Below are positions 3,802 to 63,394 of a DNA stretch of 64,000 nucleotides, one piece after another. The stretch is from Candidatus Poribacteria bacterium (GTDB lineage: Bacteria; Poribacteria; WGA-4E; WGA-3G), in contig OZ243935.1 in assembly GCA_965214045.1 (NCBI GenBank), positions 2,316,994 to 2,380,993 on the forward strand, in the 5' to 3' direction. The translations under genes were made by a program, and so were the position numbers. Numbering within the stretch: position 1 is the first letter of the stretch; every line of letters begins with the position of its first letter. Below the pieces are notes generated by a model. That model had not been told where the DNA came from. It saw nothing but the letters and a program-made list of their open reading frames with translations, and ran no database searches.

Positions 3802-3828
3802 CCTGACCGAACCGCAAGGAAAATTAGG
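3802..3828 (+). repeat. orphan copy of the CTGACCGAACCGCAAGGAAAATTA core motif (no start codon follows)
   Basis: cctgaccgaaccgcaaggaaaattagg. The same core recurs about 165 bp downstream, in front of thrC. Confidence 0.8.
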
Positions 3829-3889
3829 AATAGGGGTCGGCAGTCAGTAAGCAGAGGATGGGGTTGTAAACCTCGTTTGTGAAGCCTGT

Positions 3890-3998
3890 AGTCCGTAGTG
3901 AAATGGAGGGGTTTTTGCTTGGGCGTTTCCTCCAGATACACGCAAAGGCACGCTAAGGTTCAGACTTGCCTGACCGAACCGCAAGGAAAATTAAAAAT
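3890..3998 (+). promoter_or_regulatory. long-form leader repeat ending in the core motif, upstream of thrC
   Basis: Contains gtagtgaaatggaggggtttttgcttgggcgttt...acgcaaaggcac...cctgaccgaaccgcaaggaaaattaaaaat followed by ATG. Homologous segments occur at 20911-21008 and 44155-44272, with a reverse copy at 54442-54466. Confidence 0.6.
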
Positions 3999-5231
3999 AT
4001 GGAAAAAGTATTAGGGCTCAAATGCCGTGAATGTGGTGAGAAGTATCCCAAGGAGCCTCTTCACGTTTGCGAATTCTGTTTCGGGCCCCTGGAAGTAGAC
4101 TATAACTATGAAGAGATACAAAAATCTGTTTCAAGGCGTTCAATAGAAAACGGTCCACAAAGCATGTGGCGTTATGCAGATCTGCTGCCGATAGATGGTG
4201 AACCGACAGATGGCATTCACACTGGATTCACGCCGCTCGTTCGGGCTAAAAATCTTGGGGACGCCCTTGGTGTCAACGAACTCTATATCAAAGATGACAC
4301 CGTCTGCCATCCGACCTTTTCCTTCAAAGATCGGGTTGTGGCGGTCGCCTTGAGCAAAGCAAAAGAATTCGATTTTGATACTGTTTCTTGTGCCTCCACT
4401 GGCAACCTCGCTAACGCTGTAGCCGCACACGCTGCTATCGCGAAATTGAATTGCTTCATTTTCATCCCCGCAGATCTCGAAGTTGGGAAGATCGTTGCGT
4501 CCCTCGTTTATGGTCCTACAGTTGTCGGTATCACCGCTACTTATGACGAGGTCAACCGACTCTGCAGTGAAATTGGTGGGGTCTATCCGTGGGCATTTGT
4601 TAATATCAACATCCGTCCTTTCTACGCTGAAGGCTCGAAAACGCTCTGTTTTGAACTGATCGAACAACTCGGTTGGAAGGCACCTGCACATATCGTCGCA
4701 CCTGCCGCTGGTGGTTCTCTTATCACAAAGATTGGCAAAGCTTTAAAGGAATTCCACATTTTGGGATTAATAGATAAACCGAACACTAAAATACATGTCG
4801 CCCAAGCCGAGGGTTGTGGACCCATCGTCAATACATACAAAGAGAATAGCGATTTTGTGAAACCTGTTAGACCGAACACAATCGCTAAATCGCTTGCTAT
4901 TGGAAACCCCGCAGACGGCATCTATGCTGTTGATACTGTCCGGAATTCCGGCGGCGCCGGCGAACACGCCACCGATATTGAAATCGTGGATGCGATCAAA
5001 CTTCTTGCTTCCACAGAAGGTATCTTCACCGAAACCGCGGGCGGTGTAACACTCGCTGCCGCGAAAAAATTGATAGAGAGTGGGCACATCGGACCCGATG
5101 AACCAACGGTTCTTGCCATTACAGGCAACGGACTCAAAACCGTTGAAGCACTTGAGAACAAAACAGATACATCACATATCATTGCCCCGCAACTCAACGC
5201 TTTTCGGAAGTTGATGACGGAAATTGGTTAG
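3999..5231 (+). CDS. thrC: threonine synthase
   Basis: PLP-enzyme motifs including FSFKDRVV (Lys in the PLP site). N-terminal zinc-ribbon-like CxxC...CxxC typical of long threonine synthases. Start set at the ATG that directly follows the core motif. Confidence 0.8.
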   Translation: MEKVLGLKCRECGEKYPKEPLHVCEFCFGPLEVDYNYEEIQKSVSRRSIENGPQSMWRYADLLPIDGEPTDGIHTGFTPLVRAKNLGDALGVNELYIKDDTVCHPTFSFKDRVVAVALSKAKEFDFDTVSCASTGNLANAVAAHAAIAKLNCFIFIPADLEVGKIVASLVYGPTVVGITATYDEVNRLCSEIGGVYPWAFVNINIRPFYAEGSKTLCFELIEQLGWKAPAHIVAPAAGGSLITKIGKALKEFHILGLIDKPNTKIHVAQAEGCGPIVNTYKENSDFVKPVRPNTIAKSLAIGNPADGIYAVDTVRNSGGAGEHATDIEIVDAIKLLASTEGIFTETAGGVTLAAAKKLIESGHIGPDEPTVLAITGNGLKTVEALENKTDTSHIIAPQLNAFRKLMTEIG

Positions 5232-5404
5232 GATCCAGTTGAAGATCTGTTTGAGTAGTTCGCTCTATGTGTGGTCTTGAAAAACTGAGCCAGAGACGGC
5301 AAGCCGAAGGCGATATGTCCTGCCTCGCCTCAAGACCCAAGTTCGTAGCGAAGTGGAGAACGACTCGAACACGGAAAGTGTAAAGTTCCAAAGTGCGTTA
5401 CTTA

Positions 5405-5446
5405 CCCGCAAGGTAAAATTAAAAGTCCGCAAGGTAAAATTAAAAA
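5405..5446 (+). repeat. tandemly duplicated core motif (cccgcaaggtaaaattaaaag twice) abutting the recD2 start codon
   Basis: Two adjacent copies. The second is followed at once by ATG at 5447. Confidence 0.8.
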
Positions 5447-7867
5447 ATGGAAACGCTGCAGGGGATACTTGAACGTATCGTCTATGAAAGCCCTGACACC
5501 GGCTATACAGTCGGAAGACTTTCCGCGCGTGATCATGCTGAACTCATCACTGTTGTCGGTAATCTGGCATCTATCAACCCAGGTGAGAGCCTTCTCCTGC
5601 AAGGCGAATGGGTAGATAACGCCAAATACGGCAGACAGTTCCAAATCGAGAAGTATGAAACCATCCTCCCCGCAAATGTAGTCGGATTAAGAAAATATCT
5701 CGGCTCAGGTCTCATCAAAGGCATCGGTCCCAAAATGGCTGGACTCATCGTCCGTAAGTTCGGTATGGATACGATGGATGTCATTGAAAACGAGCCTGAA
5801 AAATTGGCACGCGTCCCCGGTATCGGACGGAAGCGAGTACAAATCATCAAGGAAGCGTGGGAAGCGCAACGCGAGATAAAAAACGTCATGCTCTTCCTGC
5901 AATCGCACGATGTGAGCACAGCACACGCCGCAAAAATTTACAAAACCTATGGAAACGACGCAATCCCAATCGTCACAGAAGACCCCTATCGTCTCGCCGA
6001 TGACATTTATGGTATCGGCTTTGTAACGGCAGATACGATCGCACAGAAACTTGGTATTGATAAGGATGCCCCGCAACGGGTACAAGCGGGAATCAAATAT
6101 GTTCTCAGCCAAAAGGCAGATGATGGACACGTCTTCCAACACCGTGCCGAACTCATTGAGGCGTGCCAAACCATGCTTGAACAGGAACTGGGAGCGATTG
6201 AACAAGGTATCTCTGTCCTCGTCAGAGAAGAAGAGATTATTAATCCCAGTTTTACAGACGTAATGGGTTCCGATGAACAGATTGACATAAACGAGACACA
6301 AGAGAACTATGAGACTTCCGAAACAGATCAGGAACCTCTTTCAACCGATAACCTTAACCATCGACTCGACTCCGATACAACACAGCAAAGCACGAGTCGA
6401 TGGTTAAAACCAACAACCGATAACCAATCCGCCATCTATCTCGCACCCTTTTACTATGCCGAACTCGGTGTCGCAAACCAGTTTTTAAGACTCTTGGCTT
6501 CCAGTCAAGAGCAAAGCACCATTCCATCGTTACCTAATAGTACACCGTCTCTTACCCAATTGGAGGACGAGATGGGTATCCGTTTCGCGCAACAACAGCG
6601 CGAGGCGATCCATACCGCGATGACGACACGCACCATGATCCTTACCGGCGGACCCGGCACCGGCAAAACGACGACTGTTGTCGGCATGATTCGTCTGTTT
6701 GGAACAGAAGGTAGACGCATCACCCTGACGGCACCTACCGGACGCGCGGCGAAACGTCTCAGTGAAACAACCGGTTGCGAAGCCAAAACCATCCATCGGC
6801 TCCTTGAATTCTCCCCGCAAAACAATGGATTTAAGCGTAATCGTCAAAACCCTTTGGACACAGATGTCGTTATTGTTGATGAAACATCTATGGTGGACCT
6901 CGTCCTGATGAACCGTTTAATGCAGGCAATTCGTCCGACAACGACTGTTGTTCTCATTGGCGACACCGATCAGCTTCCTTCCGTTGGTGCAGGTAATGTC
7001 CTTAGAGAACTCATTGATTCCGAAAAGATACCCGTTATCCAACTCACCGAGATATTCCGCCAAGCGCAGGAGAGCATGATCGTCACAAATGCGCATCGCA
7101 TTAATAAAGGCGATTTTCCAGAACTCACTGGCGACACAGACCGGAACTTTTTCTTCATGGAGGAGGAAGATCCCGAAGCAATTACCGAATTAATATGTTC
7201 CCTCATTGCTGATCGGTTACCGCGGCACTACGATTACCATCCGATGGACGACATCCAACTTCTGTGTCCCATGCGGCGCGGGGTACTCGGCACTGAAAAC
7301 CTTAACCAACGTCTCCAGGAAATATTGAACCCAGAATATACTGCCCCAGTATCTCATCCTTTGGAAAAAAAGAGGTTCGGCGTTCAAACCTACAGGCAGG
7401 TACCCCGTAGGGGCGAGGTCGCCTCGCCCGTATCTCGAACTGCAGGGGGTTTCCGCGTCGGTGATAAAGTGATGCAGGTGCGTAACAACTACGACTATGA
7501 CGTGTTTAACGGCGATATTGGGAGAGTCGTCGCGATTGAAAACGTTGAGAAAAAGGTGTACATTCAGTTCCCTGATAAACAGGTAGCTTACGATACCGCG
7601 GACCTTGGAGAACTCGTTTTGGCTTACGCAACGACTATCCATAAGGCACAGGGCAGCGAGTATCCCGCCGTTGTTATCCCCATGCACACGCAACACTATC
7701 TCATGTTACAACGGAATCTGCTTTACACCGGCATCACCCGCGCGAAGGAGCATGTCGTGATAGTCGGCACCAAACGCGCACTCGGAATCTGCCTCCGTAA
7801 CAATCAAGTGATGGAACGCAACAGCTACCTCGCCCAACGCCTTCAGTGGGGTGAAGATAGAAATTGA
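5447..7867 (+). CDS. recD2: RecD2-type SF1 ATP-dependent DNA helicase
   Basis: 806 aa with an N-terminal RecD2-like region. The Walker A box is GGPGTGKTT. Other helicase motifs include VIVDETSMVD. The C-terminal SH3-like/2B region contains YATTIHKAQGSEYP. Confidence 0.8.
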   Translation: METLQGILERIVYESPDTGYTVGRLSARDHAELITVVGNLASINPGESLLLQGEWVDNAKYGRQFQIEKYETILPANVVGLRKYLGSGLIKGIGPKMAGLIVRKFGMDTMDVIENEPEKLARVPGIGRKRVQIIKEAWEAQREIKNVMLFLQSHDVSTAHAAKIYKTYGNDAIPIVTEDPYRLADDIYGIGFVTADTIAQKLGIDKDAPQRVQAGIKYVLSQKADDGHVFQHRAELIEACQTMLEQELGAIEQGISVLVREEEIINPSFTDVMGSDEQIDINETQENYETSETDQEPLSTDNLNHRLDSDTTQQSTSRWLKPTTDNQSAIYLAPFYYAELGVANQFLRLLASSQEQSTIPSLPNSTPSLTQLEDEMGIRFAQQQREAIHTAMTTRTMILTGGPGTGKTTTVVGMIRLFGTEGRRITLTAPTGRAAKRLSETTGCEAKTIHRLLEFSPQNNGFKRNRQNPLDTDVVIVDETSMVDLVLMNRLMQAIRPTTTVVLIGDTDQLPSVGAGNVLRELIDSEKIPVIQLTEIFRQAQESMIVTNAHRINKGDFPELTGDTDRNFFFMEEEDPEAITELICSLIADRLPRHYDYHPMDDIQLLCPMRRGVLGTENLNQRLQEILNPEYTAPVSHPLEKKRFGVQTYRQVPRRGEVASPVSRTAGGFRVGDKVMQVRNNYDYDVFNGDIGRVVAIENVEKKVYIQFPDKQVAYDTADLGELVLAYATTIHKAQGSEYPAVVIPMHTQHYLMLQRNLLYTGITRAKEHVVIVGTKRALGICLRNNQVMERNSYLAQRLQWGEDRN

Positions 7868-8021
7868 CGCACTCTTGCGAAGCAATCGCTTTGGTGATCC
7901 TATCATAAACGGAATTACTAAAGTTTGAACAATTTGTATGTTATCATGGGGTACTCTCAAAAAGATGTGCCGATTCTCACAGCGAAGCATCTACGGAGAG
8001 GCGTATGAACATACATACCTA

Positions 8022-8051
8022 CTTCAGCGACCCACAAGGAAAATTAGAAAA
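8022..8051 (+). repeat. core motif copy (cgacccacaaggaaaattagaaaa) abutting an ATG
   Basis: Lies immediately 5' of ATG 8052, the start of a signal peptide. Confidence 0.75.
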
Positions 8052-9712: not shown

Positions 9713-9723
9713 TACAAAAAATA

Positions 9724-17362: not shown

Positions 17363-18034
17363 ATGAATAAAAGATTTGTGAAGATTGGTGAAGCCGCTAA
17401 ACTTCTTGGTGTGTCCGTTCAGGCACTTCGGAATTGGGAAACGGAAGGTAAGATACTGCCTTCTCACCGCACCCCTGGCGGTCAACGTATGTATGATTTA
17501 GCAGAACTTCTCGGTGTCAATGATTTGACCGCTCCTACAATTGCTTATGCCCGCGTCTCGAGTTCGGATCAAAAGGAAGATTTAGAACGTCAGCAGGCCG
17601 TCCTTGAAGCGTTTTGCAATAAGAAGGGGTGGCAGACTGAAATCATAAGAGACCTCGGCAGTGGCATGAACTACAACAAGAAAGGACTCTCACGCCTCCT
17701 TGAGCTCCTGGTGAATGGTCAAATGTCTCGTTTAGTTATCACGCACAAAGACAGACTCGTTCGTTTTGGTGCGGAGATTGTCTTTCGTATCTGCGAACTC
17801 AAAGGTATAGAAGTTGTGATTATCAACAAAAGTGAGCCCCCGTCTTTTGAGGAAGAACTCACGAGCGATGTCATGGAAATCCTGACTGTGTTTTGTGCGA
17901 AACTCTATGGACGGCGTTCTCATAAATCCAAGAAAATGGCGCGAGAGATAGAGAAGATCGTCTCCGAAGAAAAAGAACATTTGGAACTTAACCTTGACAC
18001 GCCGCACACAAAAGATAGAACTCAACCCGAATAA
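17363..18034 (+). CDS. tnpA: IS607-type transposase TnpA (MerR-like HTH plus serine recombinase/resolvase catalytic domain)
   Basis: N-terminal HTH (IGEAAKLLGVSVQALRNWE) followed by a resolvase catalytic block YARVSSSDQKEDLERQ. Confidence 0.8.
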   Translation: MNKRFVKIGEAAKLLGVSVQALRNWETEGKILPSHRTPGGQRMYDLAELLGVNDLTAPTIAYARVSSSDQKEDLERQQAVLEAFCNKKGWQTEIIRDLGSGMNYNKKGLSRLLELLVNGQMSRLVITHKDRLVRFGAEIVFRICELKGIEVVIINKSEPPSFEEELTSDVMEILTVFCAKLYGRRSHKSKKMAREIEKIVSEEKEHLELNLDTPHTKDRTQPE

Positions 18035-19091
18035 CAAAGAAGCCACGCTTCTGTCTCAACACGCCGGCTATGCCCGTGTTGCGTTCAACTTCGCTTTATC
18101 GTCGTTGAAAGTCGGTTTAGATACCGACGACTGGCGAAGTCATGTTGAGATCAAGCGTGAGTTTAACGCCGTCAAATACGATAAGTTTGACTGGTGTAAA
18201 GCCCTCTCACAGAATGCGTCGAAGACTGCGATACACAATCTTGGAGACGCTGTTACACGCTGGAAAAAAGGACAAAACAAGTTCCCGGTCTATAAGCACC
18301 GATCTGGTAAATGCTCTTACCAAGCAGACAATGGCGAAGGAACTGTTGAAGTTCATAAAAAGCGTATCAACCTTCCAAAGATAGGATGGATACGCATGCG
18401 TGAGGAACTGCGTTATACTGGTGAAATCACAAAAGTCGTTGTGTCGAAACATAACGACAAATGGTTTGTGTCTATCACCGTTAGACGCCTCGATAGCAGC
18501 AACTATAAGCACCAACCGTCTCTGTTTGACCGACAAGAAAAGCAACCGATAGGGATAGACGTAGGTATCAATACACTCGCTACATGCTCTAATGGGGAGA
18601 CTTACGACAATCCACGACCTCTCAAGCGATATGAGCGAAAGTTAGCGCGTGCCAATCGTGCTTTGTCACGTAAGGTTAAGTTTTCAAAGAACTGGTATAA
18701 GCAGAAAAAACGCCTCTCTGCTGTCCACGCACGTATTGGTAATCTCCGTGAGGACGCTCACCACCAAGCCACGATACGGATTGTTCGCAAAGCACGTGCT
18801 ATCGGTATTGAGACGCTGAAGGTTACCCACATGCTCAAGAATCGGAAACTTGCCAAAGCATTATCCGACTCAGCACTTGGAGGCTTTCTAACCAAACTCA
18901 AGTATAAAGCAGAGAGACGCGGCATACCGATAACCGAAGCCTCCCAATTCTTTGCGAGTTCCAAGACCTGTAGCAACTGCGGACACAAGAAAACAGACGT
19001 GATGCTCTTTGATAGAATCTATCATTGCTCCGAATGTGGTTTTGAATGTGATAGAGACCTGAATGCGGCTATCAATCTGTGTCCTGCGTAG
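17994..19091 (+). CDS. tnpB: TnpB (IS605/IS607 OrfB family; RuvC-like RNA-guided nuclease family with C-terminal zinc finger)
   Basis: 365 aa. Has the RuvC-I motif IGIDVGIN and a C-terminal CSNCG...CSECG zinc ribbon. Overlaps tnpA by 41 nt. Confidence 0.85.
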   Translation: MTRRTQKIELNPNNKEATLLSQHAGYARVAFNFALSSLKVGLDTDDWRSHVEIKREFNAVKYDKFDWCKALSQNASKTAIHNLGDAVTRWKKGQNKFPVYKHRSGKCSYQADNGEGTVEVHKKRINLPKIGWIRMREELRYTGEITKVVVSKHNDKWFVSITVRRLDSSNYKHQPSLFDRQEKQPIGIDVGINTLATCSNGETYDNPRPLKRYERKLARANRALSRKVKFSKNWYKQKKRLSAVHARIGNLREDAHHQATIRIVRKARAIGIETLKVTHMLKNRKLAKALSDSALGGFLTKLKYKAERRGIPITEASQFFASSKTCSNCGHKKTDVMLFDRIYHCSECGFECDRDLNAAINLCPA

Positions 19092-20812: not shown

Positions 20813-20910
20813 TGAATGGGATGGACGCAATTCTCTTGTAAATGCGGTTTCCCACAGATTGGTGCGGTGGTATCCGATACCGAACGGATAAAAAGGCGCG
20901 CAGCCTCAAA

Positions 20911-21008
20911 CGTAGTGGGAGGATTTTGCTTGGGTATTTCTTCAGGTCTACGCAAAGACACTTGGAAGCACAAACCTACTTCACCGAACCGCAAGGAAAA
21001 TTAGGAAA
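20911..21008 (+). repeat. long-form leader repeat ending in the core motif followed by ATG (short ORF only)
   Basis: gtagtgggaggattttgcttgggtattt...acgcaaagacac...caccgaaccgcaaggaaaattaggaaa followed by ATG at 21009. Only a 14-codon ORF follows. Confidence 0.7.
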
Positions 21009-21043
21009 ATGTCTGTTATTCTTCTCGAAGTCCAAAGCCGCAA

Positions 21044-21129
21044 GCCCGTAATGAAATGGAGGGCGACTCTACGGGAAGGCAGGTAAATGTATAAACCCAC
21101 TTCATCGAACCGCAAGGAAAATTAGAAAC
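21044..21129 (+). promoter_or_regulatory. extended leader repeat (GCCCGTAATGAAATGGAGGGCG...ATCGAACCGCAAGGAAAATTAGAAAC) abutting the pnkp start
   Basis: Homologous to the leaders at 30042-30131 and 34672-34757. ATG at 21130. Confidence 0.7.
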
Positions 21130-24950: not shown

Positions 24951-26045
24951 ATGGCACATAAATCCCATAAGATAGCACTTCGGGTTAATTCTGAACAAGA
25001 CGCGTGGTTTCATAGCCAATGCGGTTACGCTCGGTTTGCCTGTAATAATGCCCTGGCACATTTCAAAGCGGGTTTGGAATCAGGCACGTTCCATTCGGGA
25101 GTTGATTTAAACAATCACTTCAATACAGCCAAAAAAGCGTATGACTGGACGAAAGCACAAGACCAGCGTGCTGCGTTATATGCTATCCGAAACCTAACAG
25201 CAGGCATAAACCGCTGGAAAGACAAGATGAGTGGGTTTCCAAAGTTCAAGAAGCGTGGGCATAGGTTATCCTACACCACAGACGAACAGGCAGTAAAGGT
25301 AGACGGGAAGCGTATCAAGTTGCCCAAAATCGGTTGGGTCAAAATGTTTCAAGAGTTGCGTTTTGAGGGCGAGATTCTCCGTGTTACTATATCCAAGACG
25401 GCGCATAGGTGGTTTGTATCTATCACCGTTGACACAGGAACACCCAATGTTCTACGTGATACGCGTGGACTCCCTGTAGTCGGCATAGACGTAGGTATCA
25501 ACTCACTTGCTACACTGGATACGGGTAAACACTACGATAATCCAAGACCTTTGAAACGCTATGAAAGGAAGTTGGCACGTGAGCAACGCAAGTTAAGTCG
25601 TAAAGTATTTCTATCCAATAACTACTATAAGCAAAAAGAGAGAGTTGCTAAACTACACTATAAGATTGCTTGTATCCGAAATGACGCACACCACCAAGCG
25701 ACCACAGAGATCGTCAATATGGAAACCAGTGCGATTGGCATAGAAACACTCAAAGTTACGAACATGCTCAAGAATAGGAAACTTGCCAAAGCCTTATCGG
25801 ATAGTGCGTTAGGGGGTTTCCTTTCTAAACTTAAGTCCAAAGCAGAAGTGCTTGGAATACCTGTTGTAGAAGCCCCACAATTCTTTGCGTCCAGCAAAAC
25901 GTGCAGCAGTTGTGGGTATGTCAAAGACGAATTGTCGTTATCAGAGCGTGTGTTTCATTGTGACTGGTGCAAGACCAAAATAGATAGAGACCAGAACGCT
26001 GCGATAAATCTTAAGAAACTCGCCGTGGGCTACACGGAGAGTTAA
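24951..26045 (+). CDS. tnpB: TnpB (IS605 OrfB family), second copy
   Basis: 364 aa. Clearly homologous to the tnpB at 17994 (IGIDVGINSLAT, LKVTNMLKNRKLAKALSDSALGGF, C-terminal CSSCG...CDWC zinc ribbon). Confidence 0.85.
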   Translation: MAHKSHKIALRVNSEQDAWFHSQCGYARFACNNALAHFKAGLESGTFHSGVDLNNHFNTAKKAYDWTKAQDQRAALYAIRNLTAGINRWKDKMSGFPKFKKRGHRLSYTTDEQAVKVDGKRIKLPKIGWVKMFQELRFEGEILRVTISKTAHRWFVSITVDTGTPNVLRDTRGLPVVGIDVGINSLATLDTGKHYDNPRPLKRYERKLAREQRKLSRKVFLSNNYYKQKERVAKLHYKIACIRNDAHHQATTEIVNMETSAIGIETLKVTNMLKNRKLAKALSDSALGGFLSKLKSKAEVLGIPVVEAPQFFASSKTCSSCGYVKDELSLSERVFHCDWCKTKIDRDQNAAINLKKLAVGYTES

Positions 26046-26089
26046 AACGCTTGTGGAGTTTGTGTAAGACCTCCACAAGGAGGCTACAA

Positions 26090-29992: not shown

Positions 29993-30041
29993 AGGAAAAT
30001 TAGGCATGCAAGAACCTCTTAAAGGTCGGACAAAGCACGCA

Positions 30042-30131
30042 GCCCGTAATGAAATGGAGGGCGGATCTACGGAAAGGAACGTCAAATTTGAAACCGACCT
30101 GACCGAACCGCAAGATAAAATTAAAAAAGCA
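30042..30131 (+). promoter_or_regulatory. extended leader repeat with the core motif, upstream of the epimerase gene
   Basis: 88 of 94 nt identical to the 34672-34757 copy. Ends ...ccgcaagataaaattaaaaaagca, just before a TTG. Confidence 0.7.
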
Positions 30132-31112: not shown

Positions 31113-31252
31113 GCAGGAGGTTAGCCGTCAGCAGTCGGTTGTCAGCAGTCGGTGAAGAGCGAATTATGGCATCAGGAAATACGCAACTGCCACAAGAATC
31201 TACCGAAAGCCGAAAGCCGAAAGCCGAAAGCCAGTATAAAACATTTTGGGTG

Positions 31253-32616: not shown

Positions 32617-32704
32617 AAGCCTGCAACAACGGCGCAGGCGACTTGAGAGAAGGCACTTCAAGCATGAAACCTACTCAATTACTCCGCAAGGTAAGTTTAA
32701 AAAA
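32617..32704 (+). repeat. start-codon cassette repeat (AAGCCTGCAACAACGGCGCAGGCGAC...AGAGAAGGCAC...ATGAAAC...CCGCAAGGTAAGTTTAAAAA)
   Basis: About 90-nt homology to 42250-42337. It includes the ATG at 32664 and the first 13 codons of the sulfotransferase. Confidence 0.75.
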
Positions 32705-34534: not shown

Positions 34535-34610
34535 TTTTTTTTGATTTTACCTTGCGGAGTAACAACGTGCGTTTGGACTTTGACATGCGTTCCTTAAATC
34601 TGAAGAAATA
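34528..34610 (-). repeat. reverse-complement copy of the core motif plus a conserved 3' module immediately after a sulfotransferase stop
   Basis: ttttaattttttttgattttaccttgcgg is the reverse complement of ccgcaaggtaaaatcaaaa... It is followed by agtaacaacgtgcgtttggactttgacatgcgttcc. The same module occurs at 38906-38985. Confidence 0.7.
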
Positions 34611-34671
34611 CCCTATCAAAAACCCTGTGCCGTTGTTGCAGACTACTGTCTTGGGTAAACTAAAACCCATA

Positions 34672-34757
34672 GCCCGTAATGTAATGGAGGGCGGATTTAC
34701 GGAAAGGAACGTTAAACTTGAAACCGACCTGACCGAACCGCAAGGTAAACTTAAAAA
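34672..34757 (+). promoter_or_regulatory. extended leader repeat ending at the ATG of the next gene
   Basis: gcccgtaatgtaatggagggcggatttacggaaaggaacgttaaacttgaaaccgacctgaccgaaccgcaaggtaaacttaaaaa followed by ATG 34758. Confidence 0.75.
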
Positions 34758-37813: not shown

Positions 37814-37844
37814 ATAGTTGTTCATAGAGAGGCATGTTATTCTT

Positions 37845-37903
37845 CAAACCGACCTGACCGAACCGCAAGGAATAATTAAAAGTCCGCAAGGAATAATTAA
37901 AAG
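37845..37903 (+). repeat. leader repeat with tandemly duplicated core (ccgcaaggaataattaaaag twice) abutting an ATG
   Basis: caaaccgacctgaccgaaccgcaaggaataattaaaagtccgcaaggaataattaaaag followed by ATG 37904. Compare the duplication at 5405-5446. Confidence 0.8.
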
Positions 37904-38944
37904 ATGGTATTTGTTGTAGGGAATAGTCGCAGTGGTACAACAATGATGGGGCGGATTTTAGGAAAACACCCGAGTATTTATACTTTCGGGGAACTTCACT
38001 TTTTTGGTCAGTTGTGTGCCCCGCCGTTTTCATCGGAATCGCGTAAGGAGGAGATAGAAGAACTCGCCTCACAGTTACATTGTATTCAGCAAGAAGGGTA
38101 TCGCACGCATGGAAACCCACGTCGTTTCTTAAGCAAGGCAGAGTCCTTTCTTGAGAGTCTAATCACTTATCCTGAAACGCAAGCCGCGCTTTTTGAAGCC
38201 TTTCTCCACCATGTTGCTGCTGAGAATGGTGGTGCTATCCCTTGCGATCAAACACCGCGTAATGTCTTTTATATTGCCGATATCCTTCAGCTTTACCCGA
38301 AAGCTCGGATTATCAATATGATCCGTGACCCACGCGATGTGTTATTATCTCAAAAAAGGAAGTGGAAACGCCGGTTTCTCGGCGGGAGTGATCTGCCGAA
38401 AAAGGAAACGTTCCGTGATTGGGTGAACTATCATCCAATAATCATTAGTTACATCTGGCGCACCGCCGTCGCCGCTGCTGAGCAGTTTTTACAACACGAA
38501 CGAGTTACCTCCATCTATTTTGAGGAACTCCTCGCGCACCCTAAGGCAACTGTCAAACATCTCTGTGATTTTGTCGGTATTACTTACACGGATGCAATGC
38601 TCCAAGTACCGCAAGTTGGATCTTCTGTCGCGGAGGACCAGCCTCAGCAACTTGGCATAAATCCGCACCGAGCACACAGTTGGAACAGGAACACAACTGG
38701 CGGAGAGCTCAGTTCCGCTGAGATTTACCTTAACCAGACGATAACTGCAGCTCTCATGAAAACACATAACTATATCCCTGTGTCGGTGCGTCCAAATCTC
38801 GCACATTTGACACTACACCTATTGACCTTTCCTGTAAAATTAGTCGGGGCATTCCTTTTTAACCTTGATCGGATGAAAAGCATCCGTCAAACGCTAAAGA
38901 GACGGATTTTTAATTTACCTTGCAGAGAAACAACGGACGTTTGA
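37904..38944 (+). CDS. sulfotransferase-family protein
   Basis: VVGNSRSGTTMMGRIL (5'-PSB) and MIRDPRDVLLS (3'-PB). The last about 12 codons are encoded by the reverse-orientation repeat module. Confidence 0.7.
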   Translation: MVFVVGNSRSGTTMMGRILGKHPSIYTFGELHFFGQLCAPPFSSESRKEEIEELASQLHCIQQEGYRTHGNPRRFLSKAESFLESLITYPETQAALFEAFLHHVAAENGGAIPCDQTPRNVFYIADILQLYPKARIINMIRDPRDVLLSQKRKWKRRFLGGSDLPKKETFRDWVNYHPIIISYIWRTAVAAAEQFLQHERVTSIYFEELLAHPKATVKHLCDFVGITYTDAMLQVPQVGSSVAEDQPQQLGINPHRAHSWNRNTTGGELSSAEIYLNQTITAALMKTHNYIPVSVRPNLAHLTLHLLTFPVKLVGAFLFNLDRMKSIRQTLKRRIFNLPCRETTDV

Positions 38945-38985
38945 ACTTTGAAGTGCGTTTCTTCAGATATACGTAAAGGTACTTT
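38906..38985 (-). repeat. reverse-complement core motif plus conserved 3' module (second copy)
   Basis: tttttaatttaccttgcagagaaacaacggacgtttgaactttgaagtgcgtttc, homologous to 34528-34610. Confidence 0.7.
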
Positions 38986-39002
38986 ATTTATTAAACCCAC
39001 CT

Positions 39003-39029
39003 CACCGAACCGCAAGGAATAATTAAAAT
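39003..39029 (+). repeat. core motif copy abutting an ATG
   Basis: caccgaaccgcaaggaataattaaaat followed by ATG 39030. Confidence 0.8.
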
Positions 39030-42194: not shown

Positions 42195-42201
42195 GTAAAT
42201 C

Positions 42202-42337
42202 ATGAGAGATGAAATCTGCATTATTCACCCGCAAGATAAAATTAAAAACAAGCCTGCAACAACGGCGCAGGCGACAACAGAGAAAGGCACGTGAGAGATG
42301 AAATCTGCGTTATTCGCCCGCAAGGTAAAATTAAAAA
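42202..42337 (+). repeat. start-codon cassette: a partial copy (42202-42248) and a full copy (42250-42337), the latter including the ATG at 42298 and the first codons of the following gene
   Basis: atgagagatgaaatctgcRttattcRcccgcaagRtaaaattaaaaa occurs twice, separated by aagcctgcaacaacggcgcaggcgacaacagagaaaggcac. Homologous to 32617-32704. Confidence 0.75.
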
Positions 42338-44154: not shown

Positions 44155-44272
44155 AAAACCAAGCGTTTTTGCTTGGGTGTTTACGAAATGAAATTATGCC
44201 TTAAGGCGACTCGAGAAAAAAGAACGTCAATATCCAAACCCTGATACTTAACCGCAGGGAAAATTAAAAAAT
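44155..44272 (+). repeat. long-form leader repeat ending in a core-motif variant (accgcagggaaaattaaaaa) not followed by ATG
   Basis: Contains the ccaagcgtttttgcttgg hairpin. Confidence 0.65.
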
Positions 44273-44318: not shown

Positions 44319-44545
44319 ATATATGTAGAACCCAATCTGAAACAGAGACGAACTGTGCTTTGATAGCACAATTTAATCGCCTGAATTTATCTTGCGGTCG
44401 GTCCAGGGCGTTCTTGAAAAGAAGTTTTTCTGTCGCGTCCGTCCGGCGCGATGCTTGGACTACAATTGTTAGCCAAAGTGCATAGCTTGAAACGAAGTGG
44501 AAAGCGGGTATACGGAATAGAATATGAATTCACAGACTCACCTCT

Positions 44546-44570
44546 CTGAACCGCAAGGAAAACTGGAAAA
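44546..44570 (+). repeat. core motif copy abutting an ATG
   Basis: ctgaaccgcaaggaaaactggaaaa followed by ATG 44571. Confidence 0.75.
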
Positions 44571-46492: not shown

Positions 46493-46553
46493 CGCAATCG
46501 TTTTTTCACGACTGGGTTTGAAAATCTGTATGTTTTTTAAAACGCAACCGTGA

Positions 46554-46588
46554 GCCCGTAATGTAATGGTGGAAGGTAAAATTAAAAT
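46554..46588 (+). repeat. truncated leader repeat (gcccgtaatgtaatggtggaaggtaaaattaaaat)
   Basis: Shares GCCCGTAATGTAATGG and the GGTAAAATTAAAA tail with the other leaders. Overlaps the annotated start of the DUF983-like gene. Confidence 0.6.
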
Positions 46589-46925
46589 ACTCGGTAGAAG
46601 TCTGAGATGCAGTTTTCAACTGAAATGTCCGCGGTGTGGTGAAGGGGCACTGTTTCAAACGTATTTCAGGATGTTTACCCACTGTGCAATGTGTGATTTG
46701 AAGTTTGAACGAGAATCCGGTTACTTTATCGGCGCGATGTACCTCAATTACGGCGCGACAATCCTCATCGCTTTTCCAAGTTATTTCCTATTTGAGAAGT
46801 TTACTTCTATTCCTTTCTATGCTAATTTAAGTGTGTGGGCACTATTTTCCGCTATCTTCCCCGTTCTCTTCTACCGTTATTCAAAGAGTTTATGGCTGAA
46901 CTTTGATTACATCTTTTCGTCTTAG
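46566..46925 (+). CDS. small zinc-ribbon membrane protein (DUF983-like)
   Basis: CPRCGEG...C..C zinc ribbon followed by two transmembrane helices. Start uncertain. Confidence 0.5.
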   Translation: MVEGKIKILGRSLRCSFQLKCPRCGEGALFQTYFRMFTHCAMCDLKFERESGYFIGAMYLNYGATILIAFPSYFLFEKFTSIPFYANLSVWALFSAIFPVLFYRYSKSLWLNFDYIFSS

Positions 46926-49030: not shown

Positions 49031-49264
49031 ATGGAAGTGAGAATTGAATACTGCACCGCCTGAAACTACCAGCCGCGGGCAGCCAGTTTGGCGGATGCCT
49101 TAAAACAGAAATACGGTACGGCAGTTAAGACGGTCGATTTGATCCCCGGTAGTGGTGGGGCTTTTGAAGTCTCTTTAAACGGAACACTGCTTTATTCAAA
49201 GTTAGAAACCGGACAATTTCCGACGACAGAGCAGATAACAACCGCGATGGACGCTGCGGCATAG
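49031..49264 (+). CDS. SelW/Rdx-family selenoprotein with in-frame TGA (Sec) in a CxxU motif
   Basis: Not in the ORF track. ATG 49031 is preceded by a GAGGAGG Shine-Dalgarno. Translation reads MEVRIEYCTA-U-NYQPRAASLADALKQKYGTAVKTVDLIPGSGGAFEVSLNGTLLYSKLETGQFPTTEQITTAMDAAA, with TGA at 49061-49063 and TAG stop at 49262-49264. This is the Rdx/SelW pattern (CxxU near the N-terminus; GxxGxFEV...K block). Confidence 0.65.
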
Positions 49265-51059: not shown

Positions 51060-51217
51060 AGATGCCCCTCCGTTTATATTGGCAGTTGGCAGTCGGCAAT
51101 CAGCCGTCGGCGGACCCACTTTCGGTTTTCTGGAACTCTCAAATCAAATAGGGAACTGCTGGTCGTTAGGAAACCCTCTTTGCTGAAAGCCGAAAGCCGA
51201 AAGCCGAAAGCCATAGA

Positions 51218-54414: not shown

Positions 54415-54441
54415 TTTTAAACGATTACTCTTGGGCTAAGG

Positions 54442-57516: not shown

Positions 57517-57690
57517 TGTTCTCATTCCGTTCCAAAAATCAGAAACTGTTTCTTTGACCATCTTTATTAAAGAAGGGTGTTCTACGTTGTGACGGTAGGG
57601 GCAAAGGGAAACTGGATCTTACTAAAGATAGAAGTTTCCGCTTGATTTTCATTGAGAAACTGAATATAATGAACGATGGAGGCACGGATA

Positions 57691-58356
57691 ATGAAAACAT
57701 TTAAGGAGATTTCAGAGCAGATTCGAGAAAATATAAACCAATTTCTGGAAGCAGTTGACGATGCCGAACCACTGCTTGAGAAAACCATCGTTGACATGAA
57801 AGTGCGGCTCGATGAGGCGAAAGATCTCGTAGCAATAGCAATCGCAGATGAAGGGACGCTCAAACGCGCCTATCAGGAGGCTGTTGATACAGCAAACGTA
57901 TGGGATGAAAAGGCTGACGCTGCTTTACAGAATCAGGATACAGCAGGGGCGAGCGAAGCGCAACGACGCAGGCAACATTACCTGAACCTGGCAGATGGTT
58001 ATAAACGTCAAATTGCTGCTCAGGCGGCAGTCGTAACGACCCTCAAAACAGCACTTCACGAATTTTATCAGCAATTCCAAAGCGCAGCGGGGCACGCTGA
58101 GCACCTATCCCACCGTCAGAAACAAGCAAAGACGCGCTCGGAACTCTATCAATTAATCGCGGCAGCGGAAAATGCGATCTCCACAGTTTTGGCGCGGTCT
58201 GAAGAAAAATTAAAAACGACGGAGGAAAAGGCAGAAATCTGGGAAAACCAAAATCGCCGCGATGCCACTGATGTGACAAAAAACGCAGACAATCCTAATC
58301 TCGACCAAGTGCTTGCAGAACTTAAAAGTGATGTCTTAGGCAGCAATCGCAAATGA
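57691..58356 (+). CDS. pspA: PspA/IM30-family protein
   Basis: About 220-aa all-coiled-coil protein. The N-terminus MKTFKEISEQIRENINQFLEAVDDAEPLLEKTIVDMK and the PspA/IM30 coiled-coil pattern fit. Confidence 0.65.
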   Translation: MKTFKEISEQIRENINQFLEAVDDAEPLLEKTIVDMKVRLDEAKDLVAIAIADEGTLKRAYQEAVDTANVWDEKADAALQNQDTAGASEAQRRRQHYLNLADGYKRQIAAQAAVVTTLKTALHEFYQQFQSAAGHAEHLSHRQKQAKTRSELYQLIAAAENAISTVLARSEEKLKTTEEKAEIWENQNRRDATDVTKNADNPNLDQVLAELKSDVLGSNRK

Positions 58357-59111
58357 TTAAAACCTTGAGTTTGACAAAATATTTCGGTAAATTGTGTGCT
58401 GTAGATGCATTGACACTTGAGGTGGATGCCGGTGAGATATTCGGATTCCTCGGACCGAATGGGGCAGGAAAGACGACGACAATCAATATGCTGACGGGCT
58501 TACTCCGTCCAACATCTGGCACTGCAACGCTTGGCGGGTATGACATTCAGAAGCAGAGTTTACAGGCGAAAGCGATTCTTGGACTGATGCCGGATACGCC
58601 TCAACTTTATGAAGCATTGAGTGGTAGACAGTTTGTCCGTATGATAGCGGATTTATATGAAGTGCCATCAGAGCAAGCCGAAAATGAGATGGGCGTGCTC
58701 CTTGAGCAACTTGAACTTGCCGATGCTGCTGATGACCAGATCAAAGGGTATTCTTATGGCATGCAGAAGAAGATTCTGCTCATCTCGGTTCTTGTACACC
58801 ATCCGCGAATTCTTTTCCTCGATGAACCGACCAGTGGTCTCGATCCGAGGAGTGCCCGTACTGTCAGGGAAATCTTGCGCGAACGGTGTGAGCGCGGTTC
58901 TACTGTATTTATGACAACACACATCCTTGAAATTGCCGAGCGTATTTGCGATCGCGTCGGTATTATCAGTAAGGGACAACTTATTGCTGTCGGAACCCTT
59001 GCGGAATTGCAGCAGCAGAAGCAGGAATACCACGGACGACCTGTTGATGTTAGCCGTAACCGGACAGAGACACTTGAGGATATTTTTCTTGATCTTACGG
59101 CGGATTTTTAA
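58353..59111 (+). CDS. ABC transporter ATP-binding protein
   Basis: Walker A GPNGAGKTTT. Signature-like and Walker B blocks (ILFLDEPTSGLD). Confidence 0.85.
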   Translation: MIKTLSLTKYFGKLCAVDALTLEVDAGEIFGFLGPNGAGKTTTINMLTGLLRPTSGTATLGGYDIQKQSLQAKAILGLMPDTPQLYEALSGRQFVRMIADLYEVPSEQAENEMGVLLEQLELADAADDQIKGYSYGMQKKILLISVLVHHPRILFLDEPTSGLDPRSARTVREILRERCERGSTVFMTTHILEIAERICDRVGIISKGQLIAVGTLAELQQQKQEYHGRPVDVSRNRTETLEDIFLDLTADF

Positions 59112-59134
59112 TTATACCTTGCGGTTCAGTCAGG
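59105..59134 (-). repeat. reverse-complement core motif at the 3' end of the ABC ATPase gene
   Basis: tttttaattataccttgcggttcagtcagg is the reverse complement of cctgactgaaccgcaaggtataattaaaaa. It overlaps the stop codon of the 58353-59111 gene. Confidence 0.7.
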
Positions 59135-59167
59135 TCAATAGGCAGTCACCAGCCAATTGTTAAAAAG

Positions 59168-61158: not shown

Positions 61159-61258
61159 TGAGAGTATCACGTTGGACCGACATTCATAGCATTGCCGCTT
61201 GGTAATGTGTCGGTCCTACCCACTATGAAGGGGTTAAAGGCATGATACGTGAAAGTCC

Positions 61259-62368
61259 ATGAAAACAGAAAAATACGAGTTCTACCATCAATCTAACTTA
61301 ATACAGATCGGCAATTTGATTGACGATTTGCATGGTGTGCATGTTCACCTGTTGATGTTGCAGAGACGCTATTATCGTATCTATGGTAAATATGCGTCTT
61401 TTTCCCGCATCTGCAATCATATCACGAAGCTAAAACAGCGGACGAAACCGCAGTGGAATCAACTACCGAGTCAGGTCCTCCAACAAGTCGCAAAGCGTAT
61501 TCACTTGGGATACGAAAAGTTTTTTGACAACATTAAAGACCGCAAAGCCGGTAAAACAAAACGTAAAGTCGGTAGACCGAAAATCAAGCCGACTCATAAA
61601 TATAACTCCTTGACGTTCACACAAGCAGGTTTCAAAATAGAAGGCAATCGTCTAAGAATCAACTGTCTCGGTAAGTCGTTCACGTTTTGGAAGCACCGCG
61701 ACTGGACAGGCACGATAAAGACGGTAACACTCAAACGTGATAATGTAGGCGACTACTCTCTATACCTAAGTTGTGAGGACTGCGAACTCTCCGAGAAACT
61801 CCCTTTGACCGGTAATGTGGCAGGGGCGGACTTCGGAATGAAAACATTCCTCACCCTTTCAGATAACACGAGAATAACGTCCCCCGAATTCTACAAGCAA
61901 GGTCTCAACGCAATCCGTTCGGCAAACAAGGCACTCTCCCGTAAGCAATATCTTTCGAGTGGCTGGTATCGTGCGAAGCGTCACCTCTGTCGTATTCATA
62001 AGAAAATAGCAAATCAGAGACGCGATTGGTACTTCAAATTGGCCCTTCGACTTGTGCGTAAATACGATAAGATTGCGATAGAGACGCTCAATCTTGAGGG
62101 TATGAAACGCCTCTGGGGACGCAAAATCTCTGACCTTGCCTTCGGCGAATTCGTCTTGATCCTCGAGTGGACATGTGCCAAATACGGCAAAACATTGTTG
62201 AAAGCAGGTCGTTGGACCCCTACGACAAAGCCGTGTTCGGCTTGTGGACATCCCAACGAAAATCTAACGCTTTCAGATAGGCAGTGGATATGCCCTGACT
62301 GTGGTTCACACCACGATAGGGACGTAAACGCTGCTATCAACATTTTGCAGGCTGGGGTACCCGCGTAA
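61259..62368 (+). CDS. tnpB: TnpB (IS605 OrfB family), third copy
   Basis: 369 aa. RuvC-like GADFGMKTFLTLSD. C-terminal CSACG...CPDCG zinc ribbon. Only distantly related to the other two copies. Confidence 0.8.
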   Translation: MKTEKYEFYHQSNLIQIGNLIDDLHGVHVHLLMLQRRYYRIYGKYASFSRICNHITKLKQRTKPQWNQLPSQVLQQVAKRIHLGYEKFFDNIKDRKAGKTKRKVGRPKIKPTHKYNSLTFTQAGFKIEGNRLRINCLGKSFTFWKHRDWTGTIKTVTLKRDNVGDYSLYLSCEDCELSEKLPLTGNVAGADFGMKTFLTLSDNTRITSPEFYKQGLNAIRSANKALSRKQYLSSGWYRAKRHLCRIHKKIANQRRDWYFKLALRLVRKYDKIAIETLNLEGMKRLWGRKISDLAFGEFVLILEWTCAKYGKTLLKAGRWTPTTKPCSACGHPNENLTLSDRQWICPDCGSHHDRDVNAAINILQAGVPA

Positions 62369-62726
62369 CACTGCGCGATAAAGCCGTCCGATCGCACCTT
62401 CGTGAATGCGGCGGAGACGGAATAATAGCCTGCCGGTGGAACGACAGTCAGACGTTCAAACCTCTGGTAAGAACGCAGTTGTGAAGAAACCGAAGCCCAC
62501 GCCTTTAGGCGTTGGGTAGTATCACCAACTTGCGTAGATTGTATCTTGAACATAACTCGATTTCGGATTTCTCACCGCTCTCCGAATTATCTGAGCACAC
62601 GATTATTAGTAAACGTGGCAATCCCAGTATTCCGCAAAGCACGTCTGTGCATAACTACAACGGCACTCCCGCGACGCGGCGGATGTTGGTTTTAAAATAA
62701 AATTCTTAAAAAAGAAAGCAGAAAAA

Positions 62727-63239
62727 ATGTTGATAGAATATGAAGGCATAACACCAGATGTGCATCCCTCTGTTTTTGTCGCTCCAGGGGCGATGATTAT
62801 TGGTGATGTAACGATTGGGCAAGAATCGAGCATTTGGTTTAACAGCGTGCTCCGAGGGGATTTAGAACCGATCCGAATCGGGTGTCGCACCAACGTTCAG
62901 GACGGTGCAGTGATACACATGGACAAAGAAATTCCGTGTCTTATCGGCGATGACGTTACGATCGGACACGGTGCGATCCTCCATAGTTGCACTATTGGGG
63001 ATGGGGCACTCATCGGCATGGGAGCGATTCTCCTAACGGGTTCGGTAATTGGTGAGAATGCGGTTGTTGCGGCTGGCACGCTTGTCCGCGAAGGACAAGA
63101 AGTCCCACCGAGTGCCGTTGCAATGGGAGTCCCTGCAAAAGTACGGCGTGAGGCTACCGAGGCGGAACTTGAACGCGTCCGACGCGGTAAGGACGATTAT
63201 GTCTTACGTGGCAAACTGATGCAAAAATCTGCGTCGTAG
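62727..63239 (+). CDS. gamma-class carbonic anhydrase / hexapeptide-repeat protein (CaiE/PaaY/YrdA-like)
   Basis: 170 aa. Left-handed beta-helix hexapeptide repeats. The His ligands are conserved (...IHMDKE...GHGAILHSC...). Confidence 0.75.
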   Translation: MLIEYEGITPDVHPSVFVAPGAMIIGDVTIGQESSIWFNSVLRGDLEPIRIGCRTNVQDGAVIHMDKEIPCLIGDDVTIGHGAILHSCTIGDGALIGMGAILLTGSVIGENAVVAAGTLVREGQEVPPSAVAMGVPAKVRREATEAELERVRRGKDDYVLRGKLMQKSAS

Positions 63240-63368
63240 GGGTATCCTCAAGCATAACGCGTTTATTTTTAGGGTTATTGAAAAATTAAGAATTGAACAG
63301 TGCGCGTCCGCCCAAGCATCGCGCCGGATTGGGTATACGGGGAAGGTCGTTCTCGTAGAATTACCCTT

Positions 63369-63394
63369 ATCGAACCGCAAGGAAAAATTAAAAA
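63369..63394 (+). repeat. core motif copy abutting an ATG
   Basis: atcgaaccgcaaggaaaaattaaaaa followed by ATG 63395. Confidence 0.8.

Follow-up and report, generated by a model that had tools for sequence, protein, structure and literature searches.

The stretch of DNA analysed here, a 64-kb window of contig OZ243935.1 from a Candidatus Poribacteria bacterium (W in the coordinates below), carries genes for ThrC, RecD2, a SASA esterase, PNKP, an epimerase, three sulfotransferases, a Wzy-like protein and a GT1 glycosyltransferase. What these genes share is a copy of one short interspersed repeat at or close to their starts. The initial annotation of the window had remarked on a motif placed at a fixed distance before at least ten start codons of functionally unrelated genes, and the Pfam assignments confirm that the genes have no function in common. 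We find that the motif is the conserved 3' end of a longer repeated element lying in the gaps between genes. This element is an undescribed, Poribacteria-specific modular repeat resembling repetitive extragenic palindromic (REP) sequences, and its 3' end may well serve as a portable translation-initiation region. Comparison was made with a set of fetched loci (L-numbered), which include syntenic relatives of the window.

A modular repeat between genes

The motif is far more frequent than chance would allow. Its 29-mer, with up to three mismatches, has seven matches in the window and none in 100 shuffles, and the 12-mer CCGCAAGGWAAA, with at most one mismatch, has 24 matches where 0.79 are expected and the shuffle maximum is four. 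The core CCGCAAGG followed by a 12-nt A/T tail is present in about 22 copies in the 64 kb, against about 0.8 expected. Exactly 12 nt separate AAGG from the ATG at all ten starts originally singled out (3999, 5447, 8052, 21009, 21130, 34758, 37904, 39030, 44571 and 63395), and the two 21-nt tandem duplications (in the 5406-5446 region and at 37863-37903) and the copies without an ATG (cores at 3812 and 44252) are likewise as first described. The initial annotation had, however, seen only the last 29 nt of a unit of some 85-110 nt. The copies it listed are real, but nine others had escaped it: those at 30108, 32684, 42229, 42318 and 46569 (the last partial), and four on the minus strand at 34557, 38925, 44397 and 59124. 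The ATG at 21009 does lie at 12 nt but opens merely 25 codons, and an additional ATG at the same distance, at 32704, is not in frame with its gene. Several of the +12 ATGs are true N-termini according to Pfam alignments; in RecD2, position 1 of the OB-domain profile aligns to residue 1.

Flank alignment and scanning with a hidden Markov model (HMM) resolve the full unit, 85-110 nt in length, into five parts. A left arm, CCAAAG-N4-(G)TAG, is followed by a 21-nt hairpin, GCCY-N13-RGGC, and then by a variable, unstructured body of about 45 nt, which opens with GATATACGGAAAGG, continues through some 25 variable nucleotides to AAAC and ends in a 3' arm that is either CCTGACCGAA, as in about two thirds of copies (type A), or CGTYRTTWMT (type B). 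The fourth and fifth parts are the invariant core CCGCAAGG and the 12-nt A/T tail, (T/A)AAAATTAAAAA. An optional T-rich module of 21-23 nt (GTTTTTGCTTGGGTGTTTCTT) may stand after the hairpin, and its presence or absence is a clean indel between relatives. About half of the copies read AAGGT instead of AAGGA. Across at least 31 species, CCGC and the GAA that precedes it are as invariant as AAGG.

RNAalifold and pair counting were run on 108 units. The hairpin stem is 96.8% paired (93-97% for the individual pairs), and all four of its pairs are doubly compensated (CG/UA/AU/GC), far above slid and shuffled controls. In the left module, a short imperfect palindrome has (G)TAG at its 5' foot, the arrangement by which REP sequences are recognized. 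Neither method supported a consensus structure beyond this left 4-bp stem in the 108 units. Single copies fold no better than shuffles (z of about 0), and core and tail are left unpaired in the predicted folds. Two further helices were considered and set aside: a CGG..AGG/CCU..CCG helix seen by eye is uncompensated when the 3' arm changes, and a stem of ACCT with AGGT that would take in the core shows 74% pairing without covariation, an invariant core being unable to covary. No match to Rfam was found at gathering score in the 64 kb, and relaxing the threshold to E values of up to 10 gave only chance-level matches in 15.5 kb holding 12 copies. Our literature searches found no description of such an element, and this agrees with the initial annotation, which knew of none of this form.

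Some variants bear on how the unit is built. The 3' arm and core (CCTGACCGAACCGCAAGG) match the hairpin module (CCTGAAACGAAGTGGAAGG) at 9.6 of 19 positions, compared with 6.2 for shuffled sequence, in copies that are not independent; the unit may have originated as two tandem hairpin modules, a weak likeness to which we give no weight. In L041, L065, L103 and L110 (for example L110 ~7110-7160), a 38-nt insert, TATGCCTTAAATGGCATAATTTGTCTTTGCTTTACAT, itself a small hairpin, is nested in the loop of the unit hairpin. A third, core-less variant, ...AGTGGAACGRTGWCCAGATTCAATMG-TTAAAAAATG, is found in L005 and L068, where it is orthologous to units in L065 and at W 32618-32703. This variant keeps a hairpin-like module and the A-rich tail and has no CCGCAAGG; hence genes can start from the tail alone.

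Placement, spread and turnover

The fixed spacing was followed in 273 copies with enough downstream sequence. In 115 of them (42%), a start codon 11-14 nt downstream opens a frame of at least 80 codons; the other 58% are not at a start, and in this larger sample the 12-nt spacing is not universal. Within the 115 the distance is sharply set, being 12 nt in 87 (76%), 13 in 20, 11 in six and 14 in two, and ATG is the start codon at 111 of 121 element-linked starts. A length of 12 is held by 28 distinct tails (for example AAAAATTAAAAA, TAAAATTAAAAA, AAAATTAAAAAA and TAAATTAAAAAA), which indicates that the distance is maintained and not merely inherited.

Gene context was broken down for 256 copies. 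Of these, 107 stand at a start codon, 45 have a start 16-120 nt downstream, 48 are followed by another core or unit, 25 (~10%) point into the 3' end of a convergent gene, four lie inside an open frame and 27 are placed otherwise. About 79% of copies aim at the start of a downstream gene within 160 nt. In 15 of the 25 convergent cases the TTA of the tail supplies, on the other strand, the TAA stop of the gene. Units occur mainly between co-directional genes and are oriented to the downstream one; divergent and same-strand upstream neighbours number 8/79 for element-fed genes and 156/421 for other genes (Fisher p=1.6e-4), so element-fed genes are rarer in divergent, promoter-bearing gaps. Most units are single or head to tail, with an inverted partner within 250 nt for three of about 15 sense copies in the window. 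Inspection by eye found no open reading frame (ORF) common to the hairpin variants. As a check on promoter function, tRNA genes say nothing here: 885 kb hold a single one, and it has no element upstream.

Comparison with orthologues is instructive. Where the element is absent, an ordinary Shine-Dalgarno (SD) sequence stands at normal spacing (AAGGAG, GAAGGGGGA or AAAGGAAG), in ribosome-binding contexts such as taAGGAGactgaattATG, GAAGGGGGAtgaagagATG and AAAGGAAGAAATG at the same place. The difference between the two forms stops at the ATG or moves the ATG by a few codons. For genes with the ATG at +12, such as thrC, recD2 and ilvC, no other ribosome-binding signal is found between element and ATG, so that the signals for initiation must come from the element.

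The 23-mer GAACCGCAAGGWAAAATTAAAAA occurs in at least 113 places in at least 31 assemblies, one per species. Among the 80 matches listed, 78 are titled Poribacteria metagenome-assembled genomes (MAGs) or single-cell assemblies, and the other two fall on 'uncultured bacterium' contig CAZGAW010000013.1. The element thus appears to be lineage-specific, having been seen so far only in the sponge-symbiont phylum Poribacteria. Its copy number is in the region of 10^3 per 5-6-Mb genome, an order-of-magnitude estimate from the window and the extra copies in fetched loci.

Individual copies are discrete pieces of DNA that are quickly gained and lost, in the manner of REPs or miniature inverted-repeat transposable elements (MITEs), and that recombine with one another. 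In species pairs of 75-94% DNA identity, 42 syntenic gaps hold a core in at least one species; both species have it in only eight of these and one alone in 34. L114, a metagenomic relative with about 90% identity to the window, contains a clean whole-unit insertion of 135 nt at W 45790/45791 (TTTGG^ATTGC), with no target-site duplication, and there the native AGGA SD, 20 nt ahead of the ATG, is kept. An IS200-style target, with insertion following a native A-run, was considered and receives no support from this single clean event. Head-to-tail arrays have a period of 85 nt or, in one array of 11 copies, 111 nt; tail ends are duplicated over 15, 21 or 31 nt; and internal deletions leave the last 30-40 nt only (L006 against L022, L064 against L033, L110 against L001), the minimal copy in L006 occupying 38 nt where L022 has 290 nt. 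A segment of ~180 nt between the inverted cores at W 34557/34738 (W 34537-34757) is inverted in L068 (7515-7719) relative to W, L091 and L114, which points to recombination between inverted cores and is reminiscent of an invertible switch.

Other rearrangements were noted alongside. The 11-copy array (L102 1255-2467) has 96% identity between repeats, each comprising the unit and the first ~20 nt of the downstream gene, and the array consensus has ATA in place of the ATG, as do those upstream copies that were inspected. At L019 ~4916-5032, by comparison with L081, a unit carries a different MITE within its A/T tail. This 113-nt insert, with termini TAGTAG...CTACTA, contains a GGCGAGGTTAGAAACCTCGCC hairpin, is apparently flanked by TA and leaves 125 nt between core and ATG. 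Microsatellites made of four perfect heptamer copies (of CCGAAAG, TCAGCCA or GAAAGCC) lie in intergenic or 5' coding positions at W 31203-31232, 36145-36172, 51185-51212 and 31127-31153, and W 3652-3739 is a perfect 44-nt tandem duplication; the regions of the microsatellites and of this duplication differ completely between close relatives.

The copies of the window are collected in Table 1. Some serve as coding sequence (W 42298, 30006, 32664 and 46566). At W 42298-42345, core and tail encode ARKVKLK, the Lys/Arg-rich charged beginning of a signal-peptide-like N-terminus. An ATG in the hairpin loop, at 46566, starts a 119-aa ORF (repeat-derived part W 46566-46590), and the sulfotransferase frame begins at 32664 within the body of a unit (repeat-derived part W 32664-32703). 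In the epimerase gene (W 30006-30135 and L114 ~1970-2100) the ATGAAAAAGAC of L068 has been lost; the only in-frame ATG in W and L114 is that at 30006, and the unit lies inside the frame it opens. Either the whole repeat unit would be translated as a 38-residue N-terminal extension of the epimerase, or an ATT or TTG start would be used.

Table 1 Copies of the repeat in the 64-kb window. Coordinates are from nhmmer/HMM scans and sequence inspection, gene identities from Pfam.
Position	Strand	Unit and adjoining sequence	Same site in relatives	Basis
3752..3831	+	Unit without start codon, core 3812-3819, upstream of the thrC copy		nhmmer E=8e-12
3890..3998	+	Full unit with optional T-rich module, core 3979-3986, 12-nt tail, then thrC ATG 3999		HMM; ThrC/PALP
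5340..5446	+	B-type, tandem 21-nt core and tail duplication (5406-5425, 5427-5446), then recD2 ATG 5447		HMM; Pfam
7989..8051	+	5'-truncated unit, core CCACAAGG at 8032, then SASA-family esterase ATG 8052		HMM; Pfam
20902..21008	+	Full unit with optional module; ATG 21009 opens a 25-codon ORF running into the next unit		HMM
21043..21129	+	Full A-type, then pnkp ATG 21130		HMM; Pfam
30041..30127	+	Full A-type, core CCGCAAGA, before epimerase gene, no ATG after tail		HMM; comparison
32618..32703	+	Full B-type; +12 ATG 32704 out of frame; sulfotransferase frame starts at ATG 32664 inside unit	Unit absent in orthologues L068, L091, L114	HMM; Pfam
34537..34645	-	B-type; reverse complement of tail gives TAA stop of gene 33611-34534; inverted pair with 34670..34757		HMM
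34670..34757	+	Full A-type, then Wzy-like ATG 34758		HMM
37825..37903	+	Hairpin-less unit, tandem core and tail (37863-37882, 37884-37903), then sulfotransferase ATG 37904	L114: two full units ~145 nt apart	HMM; Pfam
38906..38965	-	Partial B-type, overlaps 3' end of gene 37904-38944, back to back with 38965..39029		HMM
38965..39029	+	A-type, then sulfotransferase ATG 39030		HMM; Pfam
42201..42248	+	Partial unit, core CCGCAAGA at 42229, unit 42251..42337 directly after		HMM
42251..42337	+	Full B-type; body, core and tail in frame from ATG 42298		HMM; frame read from sequence
44204..44271	+	Unit with core CCGCAGGG, no start codon		HMM
44384..44424	-	Degenerate partial unit		HMM E=0.06
44483..44570	+	Full A-type, then glycosyltransferase ATG 44571		HMM; Pfam
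46545..46588	+	Deletion derivative, hairpin loop fused to GGAAGGTAAAATTAAAAT, translated from ATG 46566	L114: full unit and a +12 ATG	Sequence
59104..59144	-	Partial A-type; reverse complement of tail gives TAA stop of gene 58353-59111		HMM
63331..63394	+	A-type without canonical hairpin, then ATG 63395		HMM

Two other ATGs in the window had been quoted as examples of ordinary GGAGG sites. That at 49031 is a real start: W 49031-49264 (+) is a small SelW/Rdx-like gene with a strong GAGGAGG site, whose product begins MEVRIEYCTA-TGA-NYQPRAASL..., with the in-frame TGA (49061) in a CxxU motif. The product is probably a selenoprotein, which ORF callers would truncate to 10 codons. The other, at 26090, lies instead inside the right end of an insertion sequence (IS) element of IS605/TnpB type. 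An IS607-like element with serine recombinase and TnpB occupies W 17363-19091, and the IS605/TnpB-type element, with TnpB only, W 24951-26130; the right end that follows this second TnpB holds CCACAAGGAGG-N7-ATG. In L091 (~1900-2200) the same TnpB-element right end abuts the epimerase gene with its ATG in frame, and an IS end may thus donate a start site.

A candidate translation-initiation region and its rivals

We lean, on balance, towards the view that the 3' end of the repeat is a plug-in translation-initiation region carried by a REP-like interspersed element. In about 40% of copies the tail ends at a start codon and the native SD is gone, and the 3' end would there have to act as the initiation region. 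Transcripts would begin upstream, through operon read-through or from an upstream sigma-70 promoter. Divergent gaps carry a canonical TTGACA-17-TATAAT promoter upstream of the element (L064/L033, L031), and this places core and tail in the 5' untranslated region (UTR). The AAGG(A) of the core fits the generic bacterial 16S rRNA 3' end, ...CCUCCUUA-3', so that unpaired AAGG would pair weakly with its CCUU end, after which the A-rich, structure-free spacer would load the 30S subunit. Genes without the element are likewise A-rich at -5..-1, and the A-run of the tail thus matches the pre-ATG composition of the phylum. In L006 a 38-nt intercistronic gap holds just the last 30 nt of a unit. The hairpin at the other end would probably provide a REP-like stabiliser of the mRNA 3' end, or punctuation, after the upstream gene. 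Of the three readings offered by the initial annotation, a mobile translation-initiation cassette fits best, as a discrete unit that is gained and lost and replaces the native SD; the accompanying idea that AAGGA acts as the SD is not the whole account, the spacing being 2-4 nt too long.

Several observations weigh against translation initiation as a full explanation. In 170 non-element genes of these genomes AAGG ends 8-10 nt before the start, compared with 12 in the element, which puts the element outside the normal SD range of the phylum, 2-4 nt beyond it; selection for SD spacing alone would give no sharp peak at 12. Pairing with the 16S rRNA would account for AAGG(A) only and not for CCGC, which is just as invariant, or for the conserved GAA preceding it. 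Furthermore, core and tail are conserved equally in 129 copies away from starts and 67 copies at starts. This invariance must reflect propagation or some other recognition and not translation alone, and, considered with the fast turnover of the element, it suggests that sameness across species stems from continuing propagation from conserved sources as well as site-by-site selection. The sole clean insertion seen lay 20 nt from an ATG and not at it, and does not account for copies that abut an ATG exactly. Finally, no transposase was linked to the element, the nine RayT loci inspected carrying other REPs.

Given the 12-nt geometry and an invariant GAACCGC, there would be room for a further reader acting in trans. 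It is tempting to speculate further that Poribacteria have put a REP-derived, self-propagating element to use as a standard start module, such that about a fifth of genes would carry an identical 20-nt leader, GAACCGCAAGG(T/A)AAAATTAAAAA, set to the nucleotide before the ATG and read by a dedicated trans factor, either a protein or a segment of rRNA or small RNA other than the classical anti-SD. We regard this fuller version as rather unlikely. Were it true, propagation of the element would rewire the membership of genes in a translational control circuit spanning the phylum, and the recognition geometry would be new, given a spacing of 12 where 8-10 is typical of SD sequences.

A different proposal makes the element a portable promoter, with the tail as -10 hexamer, the ATG as transcription start of leaderless mRNAs and CCGCAAGG, at -20..-13, contacting a sigma factor or an activator. 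A leaderless promoter was also among the readings first suggested, and the tail lends it some substance: positions 1-6 read xAxAxT, with A, A and T at positions 2, 4 and 6 in all 28 tails (TAAAAT, TATAAT, AATAAT, AAAAAT; in general (T/A)A(A/T)A(A/T)T), and exactly 6 nt from hexamer to ATG is the canonical distance from -10 to +1. A spacing peak at 12 instead of the SD-typical 8-10 suits this geometry better, ATG is used at 111 of the 121 element-linked starts, and the window has a canonical leaderless arrangement of its own at 57676 (TTGATT-17-TATAAT-5-ATG). We nevertheless consider a promoter unlikely. Neither a -35 nor a TG extension stands at the right distance, and a scan finds no sigma-70-type site in any unit, whereas canonical TTGACA-17-TATAAT promoters do occur elsewhere in the window. 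Element-fed genes are depleted in divergent gaps, exactly where promoters must be, and those gaps have a canonical promoter upstream of the element. Tail positions 8-11 (AAAA), the would-be discriminator, are 94-97% conserved in line with the A-rich pre-ATG bias of ordinary genes, and position -1 is A and not a pyrimidine. Moreover, about 10% of copies aim into the 3' ends of genes and some are translated within ORFs. Two more specialized promoters were dismissed by eye: GGCACG has no GC at -12 as sigma-54 would require, and AAC-N14-CGC has the wrong spacing for an extracytoplasmic function (ECF) sigma factor.

The invariant 20-mer might alternatively be bound by a factor acting in trans, whether RNA or RNA-binding protein, with the fed genes as a post-transcriptional regulon; such a role is compatible with ribosome binding, and we think it improbable, somewhat more so than a promoter. 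It would make sense of CCGC and the preceding GAA being as invariant as AAGG across at least 31 species, which 16S pairing leaves unexplained; core and tail are single-stranded in predicted folds; and inverted copies would yield perfectly complementary RNAs. The particular version suggested at the outset, a CsrA-type site, finds no support, since about half of copies read AAGGT without the GGA and no conserved hairpin presents the site. For a regulon in general, equal conservation far from starts fits recent propagation better, the fed genes differ between close species and no candidate factor has been identified. The repeat might also be purely selfish, its link to starts arising from insertion and tolerance only and its 3' end being conserved solely as a mobilisation end. 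Equal conservation of start-linked and other copies, fast turnover, the clean insertion that kept a native SD, a REP-like left module and the many RayT/REP systems in the same genomes all accord with this. Its difficulty lies with the +12 class (thrC, recD2, ilvC), which has no other ribosome-binding signal where element-free orthologues have an SD, with the ~79% of copies that aim at a gene start within 160 nt downstream and with a spacing held sharply at 12 by many distinct tails; we give pure selfishness little credence, slightly less than a trans-acting factor. A structured cis-regulatory RNA common to many genes, be it a riboswitch, thermometer or leader, could be imagined from the position in the 5' UTR and the one conserved hairpin. 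This is largely refuted and, in our estimation, very improbable: Rfam yields nothing even at E up to 10, folding energies equal those of shuffles, the only covarying stem has 4 bp and lies far from the start, the genes fed have no common function and minimal copies work without the hairpin. Integron cassettes of the attC/VCR kind were also rejected, since core sites are lacking and it is housekeeping genes that the element feeds.

If the 3' end does drive initiation, the repeat would be a natural, mobile and standardised ribosome-binding module that has replaced the native SD at hundreds of unrelated genes and is swapped between closely related species. Proliferation of a repeat could in this way re-tune expression across an entire uncultivated phylum. 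There would be practical consequences also: a strong start-codon signal for gene callers working on Poribacteria MAGs, an explanation for odd gene starts (genes without an ATG, and N-termini encoded by the repeat) and a compact 30-nt part that synthetic biology could test. Textbook SD pairing explains neither the fixed 12-nt geometry nor the invariant CCGC, which together pose a testable question, namely what reads the sequence.

Relation to known repeats and leaders

The left half of the unit invites comparison with the REP/BIME and REPIN sequences of Enterobacteria and Pseudomonas, which are mobilised by RayT (Y1 transposases, PF01797). Common to both are (G)TAG with a short imperfect palindrome bearing compensatory changes, high copy number, an extragenic site in transcribed, co-directional gaps with rarity between divergent genes, and a mosaic, modular build with tandem arrays. 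In contrast, the 3' arm of the element is long and not palindromic and closes with an invariant 20-mer; the element is mostly single and aimed at the downstream gene where REPs form inverted pairs, and its 3' end is set to the nucleotide at start codons. RayT genes are plentiful in Poribacteria (L049 and 144 homologues by PF01797). Among nine loci inspected (L049 and eight others of the 144), none was flanked by the hairpin of this element; all nine were flanked by GTAG-hairpin REPs of their own, for example GTAGGAGCGAGC..., GTAGGAGGGAACTCCGATTCCC and GTAGCCGGGGCATCTTGCCCCG. The RayT genes at L049 2290-3070, L118, L119/L120, L121, L123 and L126 each stand with arrays of a different REP (such as GTAGGAGCGAGCTGTGCTCGC, GTAGGAGGGAACTCCGATTCCC and GTAGCCGGGGCATCTTGCCCCG), and Poribacteria-like genomes appear unusually rich in REP families. 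It is plausible, from these likenesses, that the element belongs to a RayT/REP system.

Other mobile repeats resemble it in part. Correia/NEMIS, ERIC, BOX and RUP are also intergenic repeats of ~100-150 nt in hundreds of copies, BOX being modular as well, and they too can give an adjacent gene expression signals. What they donate, however, are promoters or processing sites and not a ribosome-binding region abutting the start, and MITEs of Correia type are bounded by terminal inverted repeats and duplicate a TA target, neither of which is seen in single units here. A MITE of that type was rejected for the element: the two ends of the unit are unrelated and the 135-nt insertion at TTTGG^ATTGC made no duplication. 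Members of the IS200/IS605 group and PATEs share duplication-free insertion, a hairpin near one end and strong orientation specificity, and the window itself has TnpB elements of IS605/IS607 type; the element differs in having a hairpin at one end only, no fixed tetranucleotide target (in the one insertion site seen) and no linked TnpA found.

With respect to translation, SD sequences are known to combine with A/U-rich enhancers in S1-dependent leaders such as that of phage T7 gene 10. The element is similar in having AAGG(A), complementary to the 16S 3' CCUU(A), and an A/U-rich, unstructured spacer to the ATG, and dissimilar in being fixed at 12 nt instead of 8-10, in its extra invariant GAACCGC and in being carried on a repeat. 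The mycobacterial interspersed repetitive units (MIRUs), reportedly described by Supply et al. in 1997, also lie between cistrons in the orientation of the flanking genes, meet the neighbouring stop and start codons with their ends and vary in tandem copy number; they have been proposed to act in expression of the downstream cistron. The ends of our units likewise meet start codons in 107/256 copies and stop codons in 25/256, 15 of these through the tail TTA read as TAA. MIRUs differ in carrying small ORFs that couple translation, where no consistent ORF was seen in the element; the sequences are unrelated and MIRUs are without the hairpin-plus-core architecture. By analogy of placement and proposed role, MIRUs may be regarded as the nearest functional counterpart of the Poribacteria repeat.

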